This document shows, in pieces, positions 43,101 through 53,282 of a stretch of 64,000 bases of DNA. Below the pieces are notes generated by a model. The model had not been told where the DNA came from. It saw only the letters and a program-made list of their open reading frames with translations, and made no database searches. Each line of letters begins with the position of its first letter. The stretch's first letter is position 1. Position numbers and translations under genes: made by a program. Origin of the DNA: a bacterium (lineage in GTDB: Bacteria > Patescibacteriota > Minisyncoccia > Phycocordibacterales > Phycocordibacteraceae). The stretch lies in the NCBI GenBank assembly GCA_021849125.1, contig JAJZTG010000001.1, forward strand, positions 18,392-82,391, written 5' to 3'.

Positions 43101-44147
43101 TTAGTCAATAGCCGGCTTGTCGAGTAACTCCGGCTCAAAACCGATCTTGGTCTCGGCGATGCGGTAGACGTCCTTATCGATCTTGCCGAGCTCCTTGTAG
43201 GCGCTGTTGTAGTGAGAGACGGTCGTGCCGAGAGAGACGCCGAGCTTCCGATAGAACTCCTCGTACGCACCCAAGTGTTTGCCGAGCTCGCCCACGCGCT
43301 TCTGGATGTCTTCCGCTCGCTTCTCGATCTGCATCGCCTTCAGGCCCTGCATGACTGTCTGGAGGTACGCAAGGAACGAGGTCGGCGAGACGATGATGAC
43401 CTTGTACTTCCCTGCTGCCCGCTGGATGAGATTCTCTTCTTCTCCGCCACCGACCTGGTTCGTGAGGAGATCGTAGTAGATCGCTTCGCTCGGGATGAAC
43501 ATGAAGGCGAAGTCCATGGTCTTCTCCTCGGGACGGATATATTTTGCGGTCTCCTGGATACGCAGCTTCAGATCCGCGACGAACGCCTTCTCAAGCGAGG
43601 CACGCTCGGTCTCTGGCGCGTTCACGAGACGGTTATAGTTCTCAAGCGAGAACTTGGAGTCGATGGGGACGACCTTATCGCTCACGAAGACGGCTGCGTC
43701 GACAATCTCGCCATTATCGAAACCGTACTGCATCTGGTACATGCCGGGCGGGAGCACGTTCTTAAGCACCGTCTCGAGGTAGTACTCGCCAAGGATGCCG
43801 CGCTGCTTCGGATTCTTCAGGATGTCCTGCAAACCCTTGAGCTGCTCTGCAAAGCCTTGGGTCTGTCGGCCGATCTCCTTTACCGACGTGACTTCCTCGG
43901 TGATCTCCTTGATGAGGCGCGTGCTCTCGGAGAACTGACGGTGCGCGTGCTCCTGCATCGCTTTGGAAGACTCGGAGACGCGCGCGTCGAGCGTCCGCTC
44001 GAGGTTCTGGAGCTGCTGCTGAAGAAGGAGGATGCCACCGTCTTCTTTCGGGGTCTCTTCCTCGCGGCGGCGCAAGATAAAGTAGAGTCCGACGCCCTGG
44101 AGAAGCAGAAGCAAGAGTACGATAAGAGCGACCGTGAGAAGATTCAT
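43101..44147 (-). CDS. rmuC: DNA recombination protein RmuC
   Basis: N-terminal TM followed by a long coiled coil and the RmuC C-terminal nuclease-like region (FMFIPSEAIYYD, KVIIVSPTSFLAYL). Start is uncertain: MNLL at 44147 or MDGHM at 44180. Confidence 0.8.
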   Translation of the reverse strand: MNLLTVALIVLLLLLLQGVGLYFILRRREEETPKEDGGILLLQQQLQNLERTLDARVSESSKAMQEHAHRQFSESTRLIKEITEEVTSVKEIGRQTQGFAEQLKGLQDILKNPKQRGILGEYYLETVLKNVLPPGMYQMQYGFDNGEIVDAAVFVSDKVVPIDSKFSLENYNRLVNAPETERASLEKAFVADLKLRIQETAKYIRPEEKTMDFAFMFIPSEAIYYDLLTNQVGGGEEENLIQRAAGKYKVIIVSPTSFLAYLQTVMQGLKAMQIEKRAEDIQKRVGELGKHLGAYEEFYRKLGVSLGTTVSHYNSAYKELGKIDKDVYRIAETKIGFEPELLDKPAID

Positions 44148-44168
44148 GAGTGTAGTATACTGCACCAT

Positions 44169-44624
44169 ATGCCCATCCACGAAACCCTGAAGAAAGCCAT
44201 CCCTGACGCCATGCGTGCCAAGGACGAAGTGAAGCTCCGCACCCTCCGCTCGCTCGTAACCGCGATGACCAACGAAGTCGTAGCCAAGAAAAGGAAGCCC
44301 GATGAGTTTCTTACCGACGAGGAGGCACTCGCGGTCCTGAAGCGCGCCGCAAGCCAGCGCAAGGACTCGATCGAGCAGTTTGAGAAGGCTGGCCGCACCG
44401 ATCTAGCTGAACCGGAAAAAGCTGAGCTCGCCATCATCGAGACCTACCTCCCCGCCATGATGAGCCAGGAGGAAATCCTTCCAATCGCCAAGGCGAAAAT
44501 GGCCGAACTCGGCGTAACCAGTAAGTCTGAAGCGGGTAAATTTACCGGGATGCTCATGAAAGAGCTCAAAGGCAAGGCCGACGGCGCCGACGTGAAAGCC
44601 ATTGTGGATAGCTTGCTTTCTTAA
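44169..44624 (+). CDS. yqeY: GatB/YqeY domain-containing protein
   Basis: MPIHETLKKAIPDAMRAKDEVKLRTLRSLVTAMTNEVV...TYLPAMMSQEEI... typical YqeY. The long ORF-track entry 43212-44624 is antisense to rmuC except for this 3' portion. Confidence 0.8.
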   Translation: MPIHETLKKAIPDAMRAKDEVKLRTLRSLVTAMTNEVVAKKRKPDEFLTDEEALAVLKRAASQRKDSIEQFEKAGRTDLAEPEKAELAIIETYLPAMMSQEEILPIAKAKMAELGVTSKSEAGKFTGMLMKELKGKADGADVKAIVDSLLS

Positions 44625-44905: not shown

Positions 44906-44940
44906 AAAATAAATGGAGCTTCACCGGCTCCATTTTTCTT

Positions 44941-46857
44941 TTATGCCACACTCTCCTTATGCTGATTAAGTGGAAGAGCCAGATAGAAGGTCGTTCCCTT
45001 CCCTTCTTCTGATTCGAACCAGACAGAACCCTTCATGAGCGCAGTCATCTTATTCACGATGTAAAGGCCGAGACCGTTACCGTCTGGATCAGCCGTTTTT
45101 GCATTATCGGCACGGAAGAAACGGGTAAATATCTTTTCTTGATCCTTTTGAGGAATGCCGATGCCCGAGTCTTGCACGGTAATCACCATCGACTCTTCGG
45201 ATACCTCCCTCCCTCCTACCGAGCTCCCCGCCGCCGCATGGGCGCAGGAAATATGTACACTGCCTTTCTCTGGTGTGTACTTGATCGCGTTAGAAATAAG
45301 GTTTTGCAGAATGATCTTTGCGATATCCGGATCGATGCTGAATGGCGATAGTCCGCTGCAGCTTTCCGAGACGTCGATCTGCTTATTCCGTATGCTTACC
45401 GCGAACTCCTCAAGCGTCTCCTGTCCGAGCTTTGCGAGATCCATCTTCACCGGATGCACCTTCATATCGCCAGTCTCAAGCCGGAGCACGTACAGGAAGG
45501 ACTTCAAGATATCGTTCATCTGCCTGGCGGCGGCATAGAGCTTCTCCACATAATCCTCCTGCTTCTTGCTCAGAGCGCCCGCGTCCCCTTCAAGAAGCAT
45601 CTCCAGATACCAGCTCATCGTCGTGATCGGCGTGCGCAACTGATGCGATGCGAGCGAGATGAATTCGCTTTTCGCTTGGTCGACCTCCTTGAGCTTGGTG
45701 ATGTCCTGTTCGACGCCGAGGAAGTACGCAACCTCTCCGTCAGGTCCTAAGATCGGCGAGATGTGAAGCTCGGCATCATACCGCCCTCCATCTTTCCGAC
45801 GATTGACAATCTGTCCCTCAAAGACCCGCTTCGCATGGATCGTAGCCCACATCTTCTGATAGAAGTCCTCGGACATCTGCCCGCCCCAGAGAGCCGGCGT
45901 CTTGCCGATGATTTCCTCCCGCGGGAAGCCGGTAAAGTGCTCCGCATTCTTATTCACGAAAATGATCTTTCCTGCCGGGTCGGTAAGCATGATGAGATCG
46001 GAAGCTGAGTCCACTGCCATCTTGAATTTCTTGAGTTCCTCGGCGCTTTTACGGAGAGCCTCTTCCGCTTTGACTTTCTGGGTGACATCCTCGACCGTAG
46101 ACATAGCGCCGATAACCATGCCGTCCTTATCCCGAAGCGGCGTATTGGTCCAGTCGCAAAGGATCGTCCGCCCGTCCTTGGTGATATTTTCGTTCAGACT
46201 GTTTGCCGTCGACTCGTCCCCTTGCAGGAGCTTGTGCCAGACGATTTCGACTTGGGGCTGCACTGCCGTAGGAACGATCGTGCCGTAGGGGTGCTTCCCT
46301 TTCATCTCCCCGAAAGAGAAGCCGAATATCTTTTCCGCTGCCGCGTTCCAGGTTACGACCTTGAAATCCTTGTCCCATACGACATGCCCGATGGGCAGAC
46401 GGGAAATCTCGAGTTCCAGCCGCTCTTCGCTCCGGCGCACAGCCTCTTCGCTTTCCTTGCGTTCGGTCACATCTCGGAAGGTACCAAGAAGATACTGCTT
46501 CCCCCCGAGTACGATCAGGGATGAATTGATATCCGCGTAAAATATGCGCCCGTCTTTTCGGAGTACCGGGATATCCCTCGCTATGCGTATCTCCCTACGC
46601 GCCTGCTTCTCGAACTCTTCAAGGACATGCGGCAAGGCGTCGGACGGATGGATGTCCGTCACGCCCATGCTACGAAGCTCCGCTTCACTATAGCCGAGCA
46701 TCTGAGAGAAAGCCTCGTTGACTGCGAGGAATCTCTTCGTCTCTACGTCCGCAAACGCAAGCCCGTCAAGCAAGCTGTCAAAGAGCAGTTTGAACTCCTT
46801 GTCTTCGGTGAAGCTCCCTTCGGGAAGACCCTGCTTTCGTCTGAAGGAGAACGTCAT
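44941..46857 (-). CDS. multi-PAS sensor histidine kinase (cytoplasmic)
   Basis: At least 3-4 PAS/PAC modules, HisKA (LASHQLRTPITTMSWYLEML) and a HATPase_c domain (NLISNAIKYTPEKGSV...DSGIGIP...GLGLYIV). No TM helix is evident. Confidence 0.88.
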   Translation of the reverse strand: MTFSFRRKQGLPEGSFTEDKEFKLLFDSLLDGLAFADVETKRFLAVNEAFSQMLGYSEAELRSMGVTDIHPSDALPHVLEEFEKQARREIRIARDIPVLRKDGRIFYADINSSLIVLGGKQYLLGTFRDVTERKESEEAVRRSEERLELEISRLPIGHVVWDKDFKVVTWNAAAEKIFGFSFGEMKGKHPYGTIVPTAVQPQVEIVWHKLLQGDESTANSLNENITKDGRTILCDWTNTPLRDKDGMVIGAMSTVEDVTQKVKAEEALRKSAEELKKFKMAVDSASDLIMLTDPAGKIIFVNKNAEHFTGFPREEIIGKTPALWGGQMSEDFYQKMWATIHAKRVFEGQIVNRRKDGGRYDAELHISPILGPDGEVAYFLGVEQDITKLKEVDQAKSEFISLASHQLRTPITTMSWYLEMLLEGDAGALSKKQEDYVEKLYAAARQMNDILKSFLYVLRLETGDMKVHPVKMDLAKLGQETLEEFAVSIRNKQIDVSESCSGLSPFSIDPDIAKIILQNLISNAIKYTPEKGSVHISCAHAAAGSSVGGREVSEESMVITVQDSGIGIPQKDQEKIFTRFFRADNAKTADPDGNGLGLYIVNKMTALMKGSVWFESEEGKGTTFYLALPLNQHKESVA

Positions 46858-46866
46858 ATACGGCGG

Positions 46867-47238
46867 TTATTTCGACCGGATGAGCGCTTCTTTGATCTTC
46901 TCGATGATCTCGTTGATAGGATGCTCCGCCTTGACGTAGTAGTCCGTAGCGCCGAGCTCCATCGCGTGCTTGATATCGCTCTCCTCGCCGAGGTTCGACA
47001 CGACGACGACCGGCACAAGCTTGAGCTCTTCATCGGCTTTCAAGGTTTTCAGGACCTCGAAGCCGCTCTTCTTCGGCAGTAAGAGGTCGAGGACGATGAC
47101 ATCGGGCACGAGTTCGCGTGCCGCAACGATAGCACGCTCGCCATCGGAAGCGATGACGACATCGTCACCTGTCCGTTCGAGCTTTTCTTGGATAACCTTC
47201 GCGAGCACCTCCTCATCTTCTACGATCAATATCTTCAT
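46867..47238 (-). CDS. single-domain response regulator (CheY-like receiver)
   Basis: MKILIVEDEEVLAKV...DVIVLDLLLPKKSGFEVL...VVSNLGE...K receiver with conserved D/D/T/K; no output domain. Confidence 0.88.
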   Translation of the reverse strand: MKILIVEDEEVLAKVIQEKLERTGDDVVIASDGERAIVAARELVPDVIVLDLLLPKKSGFEVLKTLKADEELKLVPVVVVSNLGEESDIKHAMELGATDYYVKAEHPINEIIEKIKEALIRSK

Positions 47239-47272
47239 ATGTGATTACTATTACCAGCTAACGATCTCGGAG

Positions 47273-48733
47273 TCATTCGATCTCTTCGATATTCTCCACT
47301 GCGTACTTCCCGAACTTCTCCGCGGTTCCTCTGATATGCAGCAAGAGCGACTTTACCTCTTCCAGGTCTTTCTTATGAAGCGTATCTTCCTCGCATTTCT
47401 CAAGGATAGTGGTTATATCCTTCTGTACCAAGCCGGAGACTGCCGTGATGTCTCGCGCAGCGATCACGACCTGGCGGCGGCGGCGCTTGATGCCGAGCCG
47501 GTCGAGATAACGACCGAAAAGGATACCGCCTGCGAGCGCCACGACGAGCACCATGAAGAGCCAGAACTGCGTCACGCGGAAACCTCCGATGACCAGCACA
47601 GGCGGCGCGAGGATCTCAATCGACAGGCGTGCCTCCGTCGTATTCCCGGCATTATCTACTGCCTGGACAAGAACCTTTTTCGTCCCAAAAGTCTGCTGAG
47701 GGAGCACGTAGTGGTGCTCAACTGCAGTGCTTGTCGTCGCCAGTTCCCCATCAACAAAGATCTTGAAAAGAGCGATGCCTGAAGGTTGATCTTTCGCGGA
47801 GAAAGTAATAGCAGGTGCCACGTCTTCGGTTTTAAGCCCGTCCAAGGATTCGACGAGAAGATTGATGGGTGGTGCCGTATCAATACCGATACGATAATGC
47901 GCGGCCGTACCCCACCCGAGCGCATTCCTAAAGCGCACATGCAAATACCAGATACCGTCATCGAGCGGTGCAAAGGTCTGATTGTCGAAGAGACCCTCCG
48001 ACTCGGTCGGGTTAAAGCTCGGCTGCCGGTTGACCGCCGTGGCGACAGCCGTCACGTCATTTGGCAGATCCCACTGCGCGAGAAATTTCGAGTTATGCGC
48101 GTACCATCCGGTTGGATCCGGATAGAGAGGCACTGACACTTTCGGCTTGGCCGGCAGCGCCCCGCTCGGGACCGCTGGACGCACAATTTGCGGCGGTTTG
48201 ATGAGGGCGGCGTCTTGCTTCGTGATGCTCGTGAGCTCAAGACCGTTCATCGCGGAAAGCACGTTGGTACCGCTTCCGTCGCTTGCCGTGACTGCTCCGT
48301 CAGAAAAGACCAGCCGGACGGCTCCAGCCCCCTTCACCTTGAAGGCGATGCGTAGGATTTCGAGATCCTGCCCGGAAACGCCGTTTTGAGCACCTCCGAT
48401 GAAGCTCACTTTCCCGGTATCGTTCGAATATTCCGGCCCTTGGAGCCAGAAACTGAAGACGGACGTACTCCTGTCGAGACTCGTGACCTGAAGGATATCT
48501 CTCGGGTACGAAAGGGTCGCTTGCGCCGCATTCACGCCCACGTCTGCGCTTCTGAGCTTGATGTCGACCGTGAACGTATCCCCGATGACGAACGTCTCCT
48601 TGCTCGTCGAGAGGTCGAGCGTTGCCGCGTGCGCCATCATCGGAAGCGCGAGCGAGAGGGCTGCGATCCCGATTCCGGAAAGCAGTGCCCGATACTTGAT
48701 GAGCGAGGTCTGGAAGAAAGGGTGCGTGTTCAT
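47273..48733 (-). CDS. cell-surface protein with N-terminal signal peptide, cohesin-like domain, second beta-rich domain, C-terminal TM anchor and about 75-aa cytoplasmic tail
   Basis: Signal peptide ...ALPMMAHA. The about 130-aa segment ATLDLSTSKETFVIGDTFTVDIKLRSADVGVNAAQATLSYPRDILQVTSL...GKVSFIGGAQNGVSGQDLEILRIAFKVKGAGAVRLVF follows the cohesin-domain consensus: GDTVxVxV, xAxFxLxYDPxxLxV and the block FAKVxFKVK. TM helix FWLFMVLVVALAGGILFG followed by KRRRRQ. Confidence 0.6.
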   Translation of the reverse strand: MNTHPFFQTSLIKYRALLSGIGIAALSLALPMMAHAATLDLSTSKETFVIGDTFTVDIKLRSADVGVNAAQATLSYPRDILQVTSLDRSTSVFSFWLQGPEYSNDTGKVSFIGGAQNGVSGQDLEILRIAFKVKGAGAVRLVFSDGAVTASDGSGTNVLSAMNGLELTSITKQDAALIKPPQIVRPAVPSGALPAKPKVSVPLYPDPTGWYAHNSKFLAQWDLPNDVTAVATAVNRQPSFNPTESEGLFDNQTFAPLDDGIWYLHVRFRNALGWGTAAHYRIGIDTAPPINLLVESLDGLKTEDVAPAITFSAKDQPSGIALFKIFVDGELATTSTAVEHHYVLPQQTFGTKKVLVQAVDNAGNTTEARLSIEILAPPVLVIGGFRVTQFWLFMVLVVALAGGILFGRYLDRLGIKRRRRQVVIAARDITAVSGLVQKDITTILEKCEEDTLHKKDLEEVKSLLLHIRGTAEKFGKYAVENIEEIE

Positions 48734-48742
48734 GCGAATCGA

Positions 48743-51700
48743 TTATTTCTTAAGCGTACGGACAAAGATGCTCAGATCAGTGACATCGAGCACGCCATCG
48801 CCGTTCAAGTCATCGAGCATGCGGGTTGCAGCGACTGAAGACGACCAGCGCGCGAGGAATACGCTCCAATCCTGGACATTGATCACACCATCCTGATTGA
48901 AATCGGTCTGCGGCGTAAAGAGTGTTGAGACTTCGAATACTTTCTGCGGAGAGTAGTCGCTTGTTGCACCCGCGGTAACCTGAAGAACACGTACCGTATG
49001 GCTGCCAAGCGAAAGATCAGCAGTCGGGAACAAGAGCTTGTAAGAACCATCCTTTGCCGCTACTGCTTTCCCAGCAAGCGTCACGCCGTCTACCTGCGCT
49101 TCGACGGAAGCGCCGGGAGTCGCCATGCCGACGAACCCGACAAAATCACCTTTGCGGACAACCGGACTCACGAGGCCTAATGTCGGTGACAAGAGCGTGG
49201 CACTCAAGGTCAAAAGCGCGTTTGGGTTTGCGTAGTTTACGGAAAAGACTTTCGTCTGCGTGACTCTACCGAGCGAATCCACACCGACGATACCGTACGC
49301 ACTCGCACCAGTCGCGATATTGCTTAAGGTCGTCGAGAAAGCGCCTCCGGATGAAGCGACGATTTCAGCTTGACGTGCCGACTCTTGCGGCGTTACGGCG
49401 AGCATCTGCACTCGAGCGCCCGGGAAAGCTTGTCCTGAGATACGAGTACCTGCGATCGGCTTTACGGCACCAAGGCCCGCACCACCGCCGATCGGCGCAA
49501 CCGGCGTCGCTGAGAAGAGGAGCGATCCAGTCGACGAGACATCGAGGCCGGTACCCTCGCTATCAGTGAGCGAAAGGGTCACCGTCTCGGCAACCATGTC
49601 GTTCAGGGTAAGCGTTCCGACGCCGTTCACGATATTCACGAGACCGGCACCCGTTGCCGAACCGGTCACGTGCAGCGTCACGTCGTTCTCGTACGTCGTA
49701 TCGATGTTGCCCGCATCATCGGTGGCTTCGACGGTTACGGTTGCCGGCGTACCGATCTGTACCGGCCCTGCCGGCAGGATGACGAAACGTGTCGCAACGA
49801 TCGGAAGCGGACTCACGGTCACCTCATCTGTCGCGTCGACGATACCGACCGCACCGTTAGGGCCGGATGACGAATCAGAAGCCGTGACCGTCCAGGTGCC
49901 GGCTTTCTCGTCGTAATACCAGAAGTTCGTGGTCGATTGGCCATCATTTACTGTGGCAACGGTTATGGGAATGCCGCCCATCGCGGCATCGTAGAATTTT
50001 GCGGCGCTGCCGGTCGAAGAAGTGTAAAGGTACGCGAGCGTGACACCGGAGGTTACGAGATTGCCGTACTCATCCTTGCGCGCGAGGGTGTACCCGAGAC
50101 GCGTACCCGCCGTCATATCGCCAGGGTCGTTCAAAGTGAACGCGCTCACCGCAGCAGGCGTCACCGTGAGAGCATCGCTCGCGTCGGCGATACCAGCGGC
50201 CCCATCCGGCGCCGATGCATTATCGGAAGCCGTGATGTACCAATCCCCCGCTTTCTCGTCATAGGCCCAGAAAGTTCCCGAGGAGTCTCCATCAGCGATA
50301 GTGAGCGACGTGATAGCGCTACCGCCGCTTGCGGCGTCATAGAACTTCTTATGTGTGCCATCGGACGTGCTGTAAAGATACGCGGTCGTCGCGCCTGCGG
50401 TCACCAAATTGCCGTACTGATCCTTGCGCGTGAGAGTGTACCCGATGCGAAGTCCAGCGGCCGTGTCTCCCGGATTATCAAGCGTAAACTGAGCAACGGC
50501 GCCAGGCGCAAAAGCTACAGATCGCGTCGACGAGACGTTGAGTCCAGTACCTTCGGTATCGGAAAGCCCGAGATGGACCGTCTCTGCTGCCGTATCAGAA
50601 ATCGCAAGAGTGCCGACACCGTTTACGATATTCACGAGACCCGCTCCTGTCGCCGAGCCATCTGCGGTAAGCGTGACGTCTTGCGTATAACTCGTATCGA
50701 TATTCCCGCTACCATCCTGAGCTTCAACCGTTACCGTAACCGGTGCATCGACCGTACCATCGCTAGGCGGCAGAATAACGAAACGCGTCGCAACGATAGG
50801 CGCTGGATTTACGACGACCGAGTCTTCACCGTCAGCGATACCGACGATGCCATCCGGTGCGGAGGCGTTATCGGAAGCCGTGATCGTCCAGGTGCCGGCT
50901 TTCTCGTCGTAGTACCAGATATTCGCTGTCGCATTGCCAGCGACGATGGTGACAGAGGTCACGGGAGAACCCCCCGAAGATGCGAGATAGAATGCATGCG
51001 TCCCGCTCGACGAGCTGTAGAGATATGCGGTCGTTGCTCCCGAGGTTGCCAGGTTGCCGTACTGGTCCTTACGTGTAACCGTGTAGCCGAGACGGGTTCC
51101 GGCTGTCATGTTTCCAGGATCATTGAGGGTGAAGCCCGCGACTGCGGCAGGAGTCACGGTAAGCGAGTCGACCGCATCATTGAGACCCACGTTACCATCG
51201 GGCGCGGAGGCGTTATCGGAAGCCGTAATCGTCCAGGTACCGGCTTTCTCGTCGTAGTACCAGACAGTAACGGAGGATGCTCCGTTTGGGATCGTGATCG
51301 AGGTAATGTTGTTGCCTCCCGTCGCTGCATCATAGAATCTCTTATTCGTGCCTGTGGAGGAACTGTAGAGATAGACGATGTCCGTACCCGACGTGCGTGG
51401 ATTGCCATACTGATCGCTTCGCGTGACGGTGTAGGCCGCACGTTCACCTGCGGTGGCTGATGTCACGTCACTAATGGTGTACTGAGCGGTAACGCCTGAA
51501 CCGAACGTAAGCGGCTGTGTCGACGAGACATTGAGTCCAGTACCTTCGGTATCAGCCAAGGAGAGTGTAATTGTTTCTGCAACGGTATCTGAGATCGCGA
51601 TCGTGCCGACGCCATTGACCATCATGACCAGACCGCTGCCAGTAGCGGAACCCGTCGTATGCACCGTCACACCCTGTTGGTAATTCGTGTCGATACTGTC

Positions 51701-52687
51701 GTCTGCCTTTTCCGCTTTCACCGTCACCGTTACCGGCGCGTCGACCGTTCCGCTTCCAGGCGGTTCGATGACGAACTTCACCGCTTCAGGATTCACCGTG
51801 AAAGTGTTCGATACGCCCGCTTTCGTCCCGCCATGATCGACTGCCGTGATTGTCTTATTCGTACCTGCGCGCGAGACGGTCACCGACTCCGTACGAACGC
51901 CTCCGGCAAATGTCCCTGAGATAGCGGGAAGAATGGTGCCTGCATTGGTCGAGAGGTCGACGGTACCCGTATAGGACGTAATCGTGTTCTCATGCGCGTC
52001 CTTTGCGGTCATCGTTATCGAGAACGGGATAGCCGTCGTCTGCTGTCCGATAGCCGCGAAGGTAAAGTGATCAAACGCGCCGACAACTTCAGTGAGCGTA
52101 CCAAAATTCGTAACCCCATCGGTTACGCCTGAGATGACTGATGTACCGCTCTTGGTGATGTTGCCTGAAGCGAGTGGCGAACCCGCGGTCGGGCGCACGC
52201 GGACATTTTGCCAGGTGAGCGAATTCCGGACGCCGTTACTTGTTGAGGCAGTGACGGTGATGGTGAGCGTCGTGCTCGTTACACCCACCGCTATGGTCGA
52301 GCCGCTTGGGAGATCGTTGATGTTGCGGTTGTTATTGCCGCCACCGCCCGTGCGCGTCACAAGCACAGTCGGCGCGGTGCCACCCGTGTCGAACTGGAAT
52401 CCAGACGGGACATTCAAGATGATCGTGCCTGTGCCGATATCCCCGGTCGCTGCTTCCTCGATCACGGGACCGGTAAGGCTCGTATACGTGCCCCCTGTCG
52501 TGTCCGCAGAAATAGAACTGCCGCCCGTTGCGGAGGTAACTGTTACGGCTGCAAGTACGGTGGACGCACCGCTAAAAAACAGAAGTCCGACTAGAAGCGT
52601 CGAGAAAATAAACCGCACATGTTTTTGAGTGACAAATAGAGCATTGAGTTTCGAGGTAATGAGCATTGCTCTAATGATAGAGCACAA
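48743..52687 (-). CDS. giant (about 1300 aa) secreted tandem-repeat protein with Ig-like repeat modules and C-terminal dockerin
   Basis: N-terminal signal/TM. Alternating repeat types of about 110 aa each: type A (FTLNDPG.MTAGTRLGYT.TRKDQYGNL.TSG.T.AYLY.SS.G..KFYDAA.GG..IT...WYYDEKAGTWTITASDNASAPDG) occurs 4 times, and type B (VATRFVILP..GTVDAPVTVTVEA.D..GNIDT.Y..DVTL...GSATGAGLVNIVNGVGTL) occurs 3 or more times. C-terminus DFNQDGVINVQDWSVFLARW...DLNGDGVLDVTDLSIFVRTL is a duplicated type-I dockerin Ca-binding motif (DxNxDGxxNxxD). Confidence 0.85.
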   Translation of the reverse strand: MCSIIRAMLITSKLNALFVTQKHVRFIFSTLLVGLLFFSGASTVLAAVTVTSATGGSSISADTTGGTYTSLTGPVIEEAATGDIGTGTIILNVPSGFQFDTGGTAPTVLVTRTGGGGNNNRNINDLPSGSTIAVGVTSTTLTITVTASTSNGVRNSLTWQNVRVRPTAGSPLASGNITKSGTSVISGVTDGVTNFGTLTEVVGAFDHFTFAAIGQQTTAIPFSITMTAKDAHENTITSYTGTVDLSTNAGTILPAISGTFAGGVRTESVTVSRAGTNKTITAVDHGGTKAGVSNTFTVNPEAVKFVIEPPGSGTVDAPVTVTVKAEKADDSIDTNYQQGVTVHTTGSATGSGLVMMVNGVGTIAISDTVAETITLSLADTEGTGLNVSSTQPLTFGSGVTAQYTISDVTSATAGERAAYTVTRSDQYGNPRTSGTDIVYLYSSSTGTNKRFYDAATGGNNITSITIPNGASSVTVWYYDEKAGTWTITASDNASAPDGNVGLNDAVDSLTVTPAAVAGFTLNDPGNMTAGTRLGYTVTRKDQYGNLATSGATTAYLYSSSSGTHAFYLASSGGSPVTSVTIVAGNATANIWYYDEKAGTWTITASDNASAPDGIVGIADGEDSVVVNPAPIVATRFVILPPSDGTVDAPVTVTVEAQDGSGNIDTSYTQDVTLTADGSATGAGLVNIVNGVGTLAISDTAAETVHLGLSDTEGTGLNVSSTRSVAFAPGAVAQFTLDNPGDTAAGLRIGYTLTRKDQYGNLVTAGATTAYLYSTSDGTHKKFYDAASGGSAITSLTIADGDSSGTFWAYDEKAGDWYITASDNASAPDGAAGIADASDALTVTPAAVSAFTLNDPGDMTAGTRLGYTLARKDEYGNLVTSGVTLAYLYTSSTGSAAKFYDAAMGGIPITVATVNDGQSTTNFWYYDEKAGTWTVTASDSSSGPNGAVGIVDATDEVTVSPLPIVATRFVILPAGPVQIGTPATVTVEATDDAGNIDTTYENDVTLHVTGSATGAGLVNIVNGVGTLTLNDMVAETVTLSLTDSEGTGLDVSSTGSLLFSATPVAPIGGGAGLGAVKPIAGTRISGQAFPGARVQMLAVTPQESARQAEIVASSGGAFSTTLSNIATGASAYGIVGVDSLGRVTQTKVFSVNYANPNALLTLSATLLSPTLGLVSPVVRKGDFVGFVGMATPGASVEAQVDGVTLAGKAVAAKDGSYKLLFPTADLSLGSHTVRVLQVTAGATSDYSPQKVFEVSTLFTPQTDFNQDGVINVQDWSVFLARWSSSVAATRMLDDLNGDGVLDVTDLSIFVRTLKK
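49400..52000. repeat. nucleotide-level tandem repeats (about 330-350 nt units, imperfect) encoding the A/B protein modules
   Basis: The block gaagccgt.a.cgtccaggt.ccggctttctcgtcgtagtaccaga recurs near 49900, 50250, 50890 and 51215. This generates many spurious antisense ORFs in the track. Confidence 0.7.
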
Positions 52688-53210
52688 AAAGATTATCTCG
52701 TGGCATATTTATGATTTCGTGTGGATAGAAGCTCCATATAAACCAAAGATCTATTCATGTATACAGGCTCGCATGATACACGATTGGCTCCCGGTTCTAT
52801 ATCGAAGACTAAATCCGTAATCATCTTCTTCATCGATTTTTTTATTAAAGATCCCTATCTAGGGATTCTTTTGTCCTAACGACTTCCATTGAAGCTATCT
52901 TGGATATCCGAGACGAGATATTCAGTATTTATATAAGAGCAATAGGAAACCTTATTTTCTAATTTATCTATGTTCGCTTAAACAAGACAGACGAAAACCG
53001 CCCTAGAAGGGGCGGTTCCGCATTTGTGACCTCACGGGGACCGCGAGTACGCTTATCGATCCTTACAGGATCAGTGCACCTTGCGGATTTTCTGTTCGCT
53101 ATGCTTCAGAAAATGCTCGCAAGGCCTTCGATTCCCCGACGCAGTGTCTCCGAGACACTGCTTGAGGTCAAAACGCGAAAACCGCCCTAGAAGGGGCGGT
53201 TCCGCATTTG
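52688..53210. promoter_or_regulatory. AT-rich 0.5-kb upstream region of the giant-protein operon, containing repeats and tRNA-derived fragments
   Basis: GC drops to about 35-40% over 52700-52990, with multiple TATA-like and T-rich tracts. Likely carries the operon promoter, but no -35/-10 can be assigned confidently. Confidence 0.4.
52992..53040. repeat. 49-nt direct repeat copy 1 (terminator hairpin + tRNA-Glu 3' end), identical to 53176-53224
   Basis: cgaaaaccgccctagaaggggcggttccgcatttgtgacctcacgggga occurs twice; the second copy is the genuine 3' end of tRNA-Glu plus its downstream hairpin. Confidence 0.85.
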
Positions 53211-53282
53211 TGACCTCACGGGGAATCGAACCCCGGTTTGATCCGTGAGAGGGATCTGTCCTAGCCGCTAGACGATGAGGCC
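53211..53282 (-). tRNA. tRNA-Glu (anticodon CTC), CCA not encoded
   Basis: On the minus strand: ggcctca tc gtct agcggcta ggac a gatcc ctCTCac ggatc aaac cgggg ttcgatt ccccg tgaggtc a. The cloverleaf is canonical, with a single G-U pair in the acceptor stem. Confidence 0.8.

Follow-up and report, generated by a model that had tools for sequence, protein, structure and literature searches.

A conserved gene module in Parcubacteria-type bacteria combines a dockerin-tailed giant protein, a transmembrane cohesin receptor and a two-component system

Results

Organization of the four-gene module

We analysed a 64,000-nucleotide stretch of DNA (the window, to which all position numbers refer) from contig JAJZTG010000001.1 of assembly GCA_021849125.1, which belongs to a Parcubacteria-type candidate-phyla-radiation bacterium. 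It carries four genes that encode a giant repeat protein with a dockerin at its end, a membrane-anchored cohesin protein (hereafter the receptor), a CheY-like receiver and a histidine kinase. In the list of open reading frames (ORFs) all four lie head-to-tail on the minus strand. The giant ORF (48743-52687) is followed by the receptor gene (47273-48733, 486 residues; called from the ORF, hidden Markov model (HMM) searches and a structural model), the stand-alone receiver gene (46867-47238, 123 residues; ORF and PF00072) and the gene of a kinase with the order PAS-PAS-PAS-HisKA-HATPase_c (44941-46857, 638 residues; ORF and Pfam). The gaps are 9, 34 and 9 nt in this order. A check of the ORFs confirmed this layout, which had been described in a first-pass annotation made from the letters alone.

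The start of the giant gene requires a correction. Position 52687 is a TTG that is only the opening of the ORF, and translation probably begins with the ATG at 52666, yielding a minus-strand gene of 48743-52666 and a secreted repeat protein of 1307 residues. The same ATG is used in the public annotation of an identical contig (GCA_027321305.1, DAHVJR010000002.1). Thus, the span 48743-52687 given earlier holds as the limits of the ORF, but probably not as those of the gene. Residue numbers of the giant protein are counted here from the ORF opening.

Terminator-like hairpins lie on both sides of the module. Upstream, a hairpin with a 10-bp stem (six GC pairs) and a T-run at 52994-53019 (minus strand) would end the preceding tRNA-Glu unit and mark the upstream boundary. 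Downstream, a hairpin scan placed a bidirectional terminator-like structure at 44911-44935 (minus strand), 6 nt past the kinase stop codon. Because of the short gaps and these flanking hairpins, the four genes look like a single transcription unit. The giant gene is preceded by an AT-rich non-coding leader of about 300 nt (52688-52990, minus strand), which from its sequence presumably holds the promoter; a sigma-70 consensus scan of this leader returned no site.

The receptor is a transmembrane protein with a cohesin domain

The receptor begins with a signal peptide (residues 1-36, 48626-48733, read from the translation), followed by a cohesin domain (residues 37-170, 48224-48625). PF00963 matched residues 50-154 with 32.4 bits (E 1.2e-7), above its gathering score of 24.1, and the same match is precomputed for many orthologues of the receptor. 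In an AlphaFold2 (AF2) model built with 22 orthologues, the mean predicted local distance difference test score (pLDDT) was 80.5 and that of the cohesin domain was 85-93. A Foldseek search of the PDB with the N-terminal domain returned almost exclusively cohesins. The top match was the Clostridium perfringens cohesin-FN3 module 2w1n; others were 6kgd_A (TMt 0.76, root-mean-square deviation (rmsd) 2.7 Å), the non-cellulosomal Archaeoglobus cohesin 2xdh (TMt 0.73) and 1g1k (TMt 0.70). Over about 145 columns, the predicted domain therefore has the nine-stranded jelly-roll fold of solved cohesins at TMt 0.70-0.76 and rmsd 2.7-3.6 Å. The cohesin call made from the sequence alone was thus borne out by a family model above its threshold and by predicted fold. 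The domain itself is not new, since the public annotation at NCBI already names the protein 'cohesin domain-containing protein'.

In the model, the cohesin domain is succeeded by two beta domains, a transmembrane helix and a cytoplasmic two-helix hairpin. The two further extracellular beta domains (47609-48151) were delimited with Pfam, orthologue comparison and the model: a conserved, family-specific domain at about residues 195-288 with the motif WYLHVRFKN..GWG, and a Big_13/FN3-like domain at about residues 290-375, for which the Big_13 match in Pfam is weak. The transmembrane helix occupies residues 386-410, approximately, in the translation (47504-47578) and 389-420 in the model. Behind it, orthologue comparison and the model place a cytoplasmic tail of 76 residues (47276-47503) that is predicted to form a helical hairpin. 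All of these features are on the minus strand. The earlier description of a signal-peptide protein fixed by a C-terminal transmembrane helix with a tail of about 75 residues is therefore upheld. Two residues of the tail, D428 and Y477, are invariant, and a KY...NIxEIE motif lies at its C-terminus.

The giant protein ends in a dockerin

The C-terminus of the giant protein (48746-48907, minus strand) contains two 22-residue segments, DFNQDGVINVQDWSVFLARW and DLNGDGVLDVTDLSIFVRTL, each composed of a calcium loop and a helix. A dockerin segment was defined as about 22 residues with D or N at loop positions 1, 3, 5 and 9, D at position 12, and a helix thereafter; the duplicated segments DFNQDGVINVQD-WSVFLARW and DLNGDGVLDVTD-LSIFVRTL each follow this pattern, with a 12-residue Ca2+-loop and a helix. 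The aspartates of the calcium loops are invariant in 25 orthologues. A profile of the 25 orthologous C-termini hit the solved dockerins 4fl4 (E 1.4e-7), 2y3n_B, 2yik, 2mte (CelS), 1daq (E 5e-6) and 2vn6_B; such matches spanned E values of 1e-7 to 3e-5. An HMM built from 68 orthologous C-termini scored the dockerin at 91.6 bits. In the model of the giant's C-terminus the dockerin appears as helices at model residues 197-207, 212-218 and 228-237 (pLDDT 84-95), with no helix entering before loop 1.

Generic single-sequence models gave a different outcome. Dockerin_1 (PF00404) matched along its full length (residues 1261-1312, model positions 2-56 of 57) but its 16.6 bits (E 0.009) fell short of the gathering score, which is 22.9, and the NCBIfam model dockerin_GC scored 18.1 with a cut-off of 29. 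We accept the tail as a dockerin despite the failed Pfam test, because both calcium loops carry the canonical D/N ligands, which are invariant in orthologues, and because profile and fold agree. The duplicated motif recognised in the first-pass annotation therefore stands on family profile, fold and calcium loops, while the Pfam check proposed for it was negative. A scan of the whole window with the family HMMs found exactly one dockerin and one cohesin.

The giant protein has the layout of a fibrillar adhesin

From its N-terminus, the giant protein consists of a signal peptide (MLITSKLNALFVTQKHVRFIFSTLLVGLLFFSGASTVLA followed by AV; 52550-52666, read from the translation), a variable N-terminal region (ORF residues 47-302, 51782-52549), a stalk of repeats in the order A1-B1-B2-A2-B3-B4-A3 (49499-51781), two beta-sandwich domains (48926-49465) and the dockerin, all on the minus strand. 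The N-terminal region, poorly conserved among orthologues, is presumed to be the distal, functional tip: it drew 3-28 homologue matches per bin, compared with approximately 70 at the C-terminus.

Comparison of the translation with itself resolved the stalk into three A units of 98 residues (55-63% identical) and four B units of 116 residues (53-63% identical). They are arranged in an A-B-B super-repeat of about 331 residues that is present in two copies with 65% identity (residues 302-640 and 633-972), followed by the third A unit. Tandem Repeats Finder detected no DNA-level tandem array in the gene; the repeats have diverged to 53-65% amino acid identity. Sequence searches against solved structures gave no matches for the whole protein and nothing significant for the A repeat, while the profile of the B repeat weakly matched the S-layer protein 4uid (E 0.002). 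That the A and B repeats are immunoglobulin-like (Ig-like) is thus only weakly supported. Matches of the giant to Kelch_1 and Kelch_2 in Pfam (E about 1e-4) were rejected as spurious; they arise from a WYYDEKAGTW motif in each B unit, and no domain passed.

The two domains that precede the dockerin present a clearer picture. An AF2 model of the last 240 residues (pLDDT 91.5) shows two Ig-like sandwiches and then three short helices, and Foldseek matched the sandwiches to Ig-like domains of Bap, SiiE and S-layer proteins. An Ig-like identity of these two domains is well supported by the predicted structure. Of the earlier view of the giant as an Ig-like repeat protein, then, the part that concerns the two C-terminal domains is sustained by the model and Foldseek, and the part that concerns the A and B repeats is backed weakly.

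The Ig-Ig-dockerin module is the sole conserved part of the giant. It is always C-terminal, with both Ig-like domains always ahead of the dockerin, and is carried by proteins of 130 to 3360 residues. An exhaustive HMMER search with the giant's C-terminus retrieved representatives of 1327 protein clusters (50% identity) at E<1e-3, of which 138 passed E<1e-30; it supersedes a word-index protein search with the C-terminal 240 residues, which had yielded only two matches. Complete giant genes across the loci compared below encode 558-3296 residues, a roughly six-fold spread in length and repeat content. Since only the C-terminal module is conserved and the N-terminal parts are variable, the protein has, as read from sequence, the tip-stalk-anchor layout of a fibrillar adhesin.

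Antisense to the repeats of the giant gene runs an ORF of 507 residues (49937-51460, plus strand), which is probably a side effect of repetitive, G+C-rich and stop-poor coding sequence and not a gene.

The receiver and the kinase carry the conserved residues of a two-component system

The receiver matched PF00072 with an E value of 7.5e-21. Its acidic pocket (EDE), the phospho-acceptor aspartate in an LD motif, the SN motif and the lysine of VK are conserved among the orthologues. By bit score, the receivers encoded beside the module cluster more tightly (median 122 bits) than the other local receivers do (73 bits), and they retain the phosphorylation residues. The kinase combines three PAS domains with HisKA (E 9.1e-14), HATPase_c (E 3.5e-28) and the H-box SHQLRTP, so that both proteins display the sequence hallmarks of a two-component system. 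Upon reading of the kinase translation no hydrophobic membrane segment was seen, and the kinase is therefore probably soluble. The earlier assignment of a CheY-like receiver and a soluble multi-PAS kinase agrees with these data, solubility being judged by reading. Light control through the PAS domains, also suggested earlier, gained no support: no LOV-type Cys motif was seen in the kinase sequence on reading.

The kinase is the least conserved member of the module and its sensor domains differ among lineages (PAS only, CHASE, dCache or MEDS). Phosphotransfer from this kinase to this receiver as a cognate pair is inferred from their 9-nt spacing and their co-conservation. The window contains no other two-component genes.

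The module is conserved across lineages with different flanks

To compare the module between species, one genome was taken per GTDB species. This gave 80 loci, in each of which ORFs were called and searched with the window proteins. The loci span many candidate families (Wolfe-, Colwell-, Lloyd-, Yonath-, Staskawicz-, Nomura-, Harrison-, Jorgensen- and Adlerbacteria), and their receptors are 37% to 61% identical to that of the window. Receptor orthologues with a named source are Parcubacteria/Paceibacteria-type; most matches carry no source name.

All-against-all clustering of every ORF within 10 kb returned only four recurrent families: the cohesin receptor (79 of 80 loci), the dockerin giant (72), the receiver (69) and the PAS/kinase family (55). 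The next most frequent family occurred in 12 loci, and none of the rest exceeded that number. A large protein with a dockerin at its end is encoded directly upstream of the cohesin gene, on the same strand, in 68 of 78 loci, and each locus holds one dockerin and one cohesin. A single-domain receiver lies within three genes in 66 of 79 loci; it is just downstream of the cohesin gene in 41 and just upstream of the giant gene in 13. A kinase lies within four genes in 49 of 79. More than five genes away, receivers and kinases account for only 4 and 3 of 378 genes, respectively. The receptor tail has a median length of 76 residues and is longer than 50 in 73 of 79 loci.

The genes around the module change entirely from one lineage to the next: the division and cell-wall (dcw) cluster lies upstream in close relatives, flavoprotein and NAD-binding genes lie downstream in Wolfebacteria-type loci (L004 and L005), and another lineage has patatin and Ddl genes. 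The module is therefore, on this comparative evidence, held together by selection and not by general synteny. In consequence, the pairing of cohesin and dockerin that the first-pass annotation had proposed is corroborated by gene context, and its two-component link, by co-occurrence, does not appear accidental.

Two sets of variants bear on how the module may work. In a small clade of five loci (proteins P0271-P0274), the receptor tail is replaced by a PAS domain, giving cohesin-transmembrane-PAS receptors at L048:5193-7124, L056:1756-3678, L075:2739-4649, L087:3268-5166 and L088:5431-7341. The tail of the L048 receptor matched Pfam PAS_9 (E 8e-17) and is 39% identical (E 2e-28) to the third, kinase-proximal PAS domain of the window kinase (PAS3, residues 280-388, 45694-46020, minus strand), which this match delimits. 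As judged from these sequences, the cohesin-transmembrane-PAS receptor is a Rosetta-stone-type fusion. No receiver was found near the receptor in the PAS-tailed loci.

In a second set, a receiver is fused to a long region rich in E, K and A. At L010:11447-13741, L008:6746-8962 and L043:4383-6077, the cohesin gene is followed directly by a gene for a module-type receiver joined to such a region of about 450-650 residues. At L080:2052-4460 a receiver-coiled-coil homologue is found two genes upstream, and the window has no homologue. The E/K/A-rich, highly charged repeat region looks like a coiled coil. In the four fusion proteins the C-terminal region has no Pfam match and no DNA-binding domain, and fusion of the receiver to a coiled coil of this sort points to an output by protein-protein contact.

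One of the PAS-tailed loci also encodes a 179-residue stand-alone GAF-domain protein (L087:1464-2003), whose gene overlaps the start of the dockerin-protein gene; it is a further small-molecule-sensing domain attached to the module. Some module records, among them L046, L057 and several of the 'binchicken' type, bear the title 'uncultured Gammaproteobacteria' or that of 'Candidatus Saccharibacteria', although their gene content is Parcubacteria-like. These labels probably reflect unreliable taxonomy of metagenome-assembled genomes.

Discussion

A proposed mechanism

The co-conservation of the four families suggests a regulated or sensing device for surface attachment. On balance, we consider it somewhat probable that they form one package, in which a fibre or adhesin is held non-covalently on a transmembrane cohesin receptor whose tail is coupled to the two-component system. 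The giant protein would be exported through Sec, presenting a variable tip on a stalk of beta-rich repeats of about 100 residues, followed by two Ig-like domains and the C-terminal dockerin. The receptor would be exported as well and kept in the membrane by its single C-terminal transmembrane helix, with its one cohesin raised on two spacer beta domains. The dockerin would bind the neighbouring cohesin in a Ca2+-dependent manner, keeping the giant on the cell in the form of a fibre or of an adhesin for host cells or surfaces, with which its variable tip may make contact. The receptor would thereby fill the role that SLH domains or sortase have in anchoring scaffoldins.

On the cytoplasmic side, the neighbouring PAS kinase would phosphorylate the CheY-like receiver. 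The receiver must act by protein-protein contact because it has no output domain, and we propose that in its phosphorylated form it docks on the 76-residue helical hairpin of the receptor tail. Such docking might operate inside-out, with the cytoplasmic state controlling display, clustering or release of the fibre, or outside-in, with load or contact on the fibre being reported to the cytoplasm. We slightly favour inside-out control.

A bolder version of this proposal, which we regard as possible but doubtful, is a counterpart of integrin-type signalling assembled from cellulosome parts: a host-contacting fibre, a mechanostable dockerin-cohesin joint and a tail that binds the receiver directly and in one clade carries a PAS domain. 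Episymbiotic Parcubacteria could use it to switch attachment on and off, or to sense host contact or load.

Several observations weigh against the proposed package. At the joint, the dockerin fails the single-sequence Pfam test and its family profile also matches EF-hand proteins, as expected for an F-hand motif, while mutual information with average product correction across 68 natural cohesin/dockerin pairs, a small set of related sequences, gave no clear signal. At the tip, the N-terminal region of the giant is without annotation, and no ligand-binding domain backs adhesion. In the cytoplasm, we infer the receiver-tail contact although the tail is unlike known receiver-docking domains: searches of the PDB and Pfam with it returned nothing significant and no HisKA/DHp-like or known CheY-docking match. 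No receiver lies within three genes in 13 of 79 loci, mostly at contig ends, and the kinase is absent from approximately one third of the loci. The module could, moreover, be a structural layer of the envelope.

Alternative explanations

An S-layer-like lattice of two proteins is the structural form of this last objection. The giant would be the canopy and the cohesin protein the membrane stalk, as in SlaA/SlaB of Sulfolobus, without any role in adhesion, and the receiver and kinase would control how the envelope is assembled, or some other process. The conservation of the module in many Parcubacteria lineages, its position next to the dcw cluster in the clade of the window, the weak match of the B-repeat profile to 4uid and the presence of the S-layer structures 7ptp and 8qox (SlaA/SlaB) among the Foldseek matches would all fit. 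However, these structural matches reflect generic Ig-like similarity at low TM scores, and the dcw association is limited to close relatives. A six-fold variation in length and repeats together with a hypervariable tip is more typical of adhesins, and a constitutive lattice has no obvious need of a dedicated receiver and PAS kinase. We therefore hold the lattice to be unlikely, if still worth serious consideration. The anchoring may alternatively be real and the two-component genes independent of it, serving for instance pili, division or metabolism and being neighbours through co-expression or historical linkage, with the receptor tail needed for membrane retention or oligomerisation only. 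Here the tail's want of a recognisable docking motif, the lack of evidence for physical contact between receiver and receptor, the widely differing sensor domains of the kinases and the shifting position of the receiver (downstream of the cohesin gene in 41 loci, upstream of the giant in 13) are in its favour. Yet the linkage persists in lineages with entirely different flanks, a PAS domain homologous to PAS3 of the kinase is fused to the receptor in one clade, and tail length and motifs are conserved in 73 of 79 loci. Two-component genes are few in these genomes, and the window holds no others. Independence of the two halves accordingly seems to us rather improbable.

Cellulosomes are defined by their cohesin and dockerin modules, and the NCBI label of the receptor invites the comparison with a minimal cellulosome- or amylosome-like scaffold that recruits dockerin-bearing hydrolases to degrade polysaccharide or host cell walls. 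The receptor, however, has a single cohesin and no match to a carbohydrate-binding module, where a scaffoldin would have several cohesins. The only dockerin in the window is on a non-enzymatic repeat protein and not on a carbohydrate-active enzyme; orthologous giants contain TIG or Big Ig-like domains only; and no domain of a carbohydrate-active enzyme was detected in the giant, the scanned genes of the window or the annotated neighbours of homologues. With one cohesin, one dockerin and housekeeping genes around them, a cellulosome role is unlikely, as had been judged before, and we rate an enzyme scaffold as very improbable indeed.

Relation to known systems

In the package that we favour, a cell-bound cohesin captures the C-terminal dockerin of a large secreted protein, as it does in anchoring scaffoldins (SdbA, OlpB and Orf2p of Clostridium thermocellum; ScaE of Ruminococcus flavefaciens). 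Unlike these, the receptor has a C-terminal transmembrane helix and a conserved cytoplasmic tail in place of an SLH or sortase motif; there is one cohesin with one dockerin partner, without enzymes or a carbohydrate-binding module; and the host is Parcubacteria-type, with the pair co-conserved with a receiver and a kinase. The module adds to the non-cellulosomal cohesin-dockerin pairs, a known class that has received little study and whose roles lie outside the degradation of plant cell walls, such as those of Archaeoglobus fulgidus (2xdh) and of the glycoside-hydrolase and toxin complexes of C. perfringens (2w1n, 2vo8, 2jh2); structures of this class were among the best fold matches of the receptor. 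Peer et al. are said to have surveyed such pairs in 2009. The pairs of this class join soluble or secreted enzymes, or else are orphan modules, unlike the transmembrane receptor described here. We know of no non-cellulosomal pair that has a transmembrane receptor with a cytoplasmic signalling tail or a coupling to a two-component system.

The closest functional analogy is LapA/LapD/LapG of Pseudomonas fluorescens, in which a transmembrane receptor that reads a cytoplasmic signal controls whether a giant repeat adhesin stays on the cell surface. LapD responds to cyclic di-GMP with its degenerate GGDEF/EAL domains and exerts its effect by sequestration of the protease LapG. There is no homology between the two systems. 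Here, retention would be by cohesin and dockerin, the input would be a phosphorylated receiver and the envelope is monoderm-like; no HAMP-GGDEF-EAL or LapG-type domains were found in the receptor or its neighbours. LovK-LovR of Caulobacter crescentus resembles the kinase and receiver in being a soluble PAS-type kinase with a stand-alone, adhesion-linked receiver that lacks an output domain, but it too is not homologous, and LovK has a LOV photosensor, whose Cys was not seen in the kinase of the window. The output of LovK-LovR in Caulobacter runs through transcriptional and partner-switch networks and not through a neighbouring adhesin receptor.

The giant itself shares with Gram-positive fibrillar adhesins a signal peptide, a variable tip, a tandem beta-sandwich stalk and a C-terminal anchor. 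Those adhesins are attached covalently to peptidoglycan by LPXTG and sortase, whereas the giant would rest with its dockerin on a dedicated membrane cohesin. In SlaA/SlaB of Sulfolobus (8qox), a large outer protein is likewise held by a stalk protein with a C-terminal transmembrane segment, and 8qox_B was among the Foldseek matches; the similarity is one of generic Ig-like domains, and that S-layer has neither cohesin nor dockerin nor signalling genes.

The module appears not to have been described before, as the first-pass annotation had supposed. The searchable (and incomplete) literature yielded no description of the four-gene module, of a dedicated dockerin giant or of a receiver/kinase link, and no paper that joins candidate-phyla-radiation bacteria or Parcubacteria with cohesin-dockerin pairs. 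A preprint on giant genes concerns Omnitrophota, and a paper on Saccharibacteria genetics mentions one essential dockerin protein only. The supplement of Kuroda 2024 lists neither cohesins nor dockerins, and the neighbours of its single-domain receiver are unrelated.

The device is both widespread and compact: more than 1300 representatives of 50%-identity clusters match the anchor module, and about 80 species-level genomes carry the locus. Parcubacteria and related candidate-phyla-radiation bacteria make up a large share of bacterial diversity, and most are thought to live attached to other cells. To our knowledge, their attachment molecules and the regulators of these are almost unknown apart from type IV pili. 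In the proposed package, the cohesin-dockerin joint, known mainly from cellulosomes, would have been reused to hang a variable giant fibre on a membrane receptor, and this receptor is genetically tied to one of the few two-component systems that reduced genomes keep. If so, cohesin-dockerin biology would reach beyond enzyme scaffolds and include regulated display at the surface or the sensing of contact. It would offer a testable handle on the host attachment of uncultivated bacteria and, for synthetic biology, a natural minimal 1:1 cohesin-dockerin pair with a transmembrane read-out. Should the integrin-like version prove true, the pair would be the first of the cohesin-dockerin type shown to act in signal transduction, and the candidate phyla radiation would possess a lineage-wide device for attachment.

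Surroundings of the module in the window

The other genes scanned in the window are housekeeping genes, encoding aminoacyl-tRNA synthetases, DnaK, MraZ/MraW, penicillin-binding proteins, a Mur ligase, RecR and DnaB. Upstream of the module lies tRNA-Glu(CTC) (53210-53282, minus strand). Its 3' end and terminator hairpin, about 49 nt with an exact 31-mer, are directly repeated 184 nt downstream, the copies of the 31-mer being at 53193-53223 and 53009-53039. The repeat may represent an att-like scar, or else have arisen by local duplication or inversion. The relatives L003, L007 and L010 also have this tRNA-Glu gene in the interval from the Mur ligase gene to the giant gene; in L003 and L010 its strand is reversed. 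We considered the possibility that the module is an island integrated at tRNA-Glu and rejected it: the repeat copies are 184 nt apart, both are upstream of the module, and the tRNA is in the same place in relatives.

At 43101-44624 the public records conflict. NCBI gives a 355-residue RmuC on the minus strand and ENA a 470-residue YqeY-containing ORF on the plus strand. Only the last 150 residues or so of the plus-strand ORF match YqeY, and the YqeY of a relative has 152 residues; the long ORF is probably over-extended across the RmuC gene.

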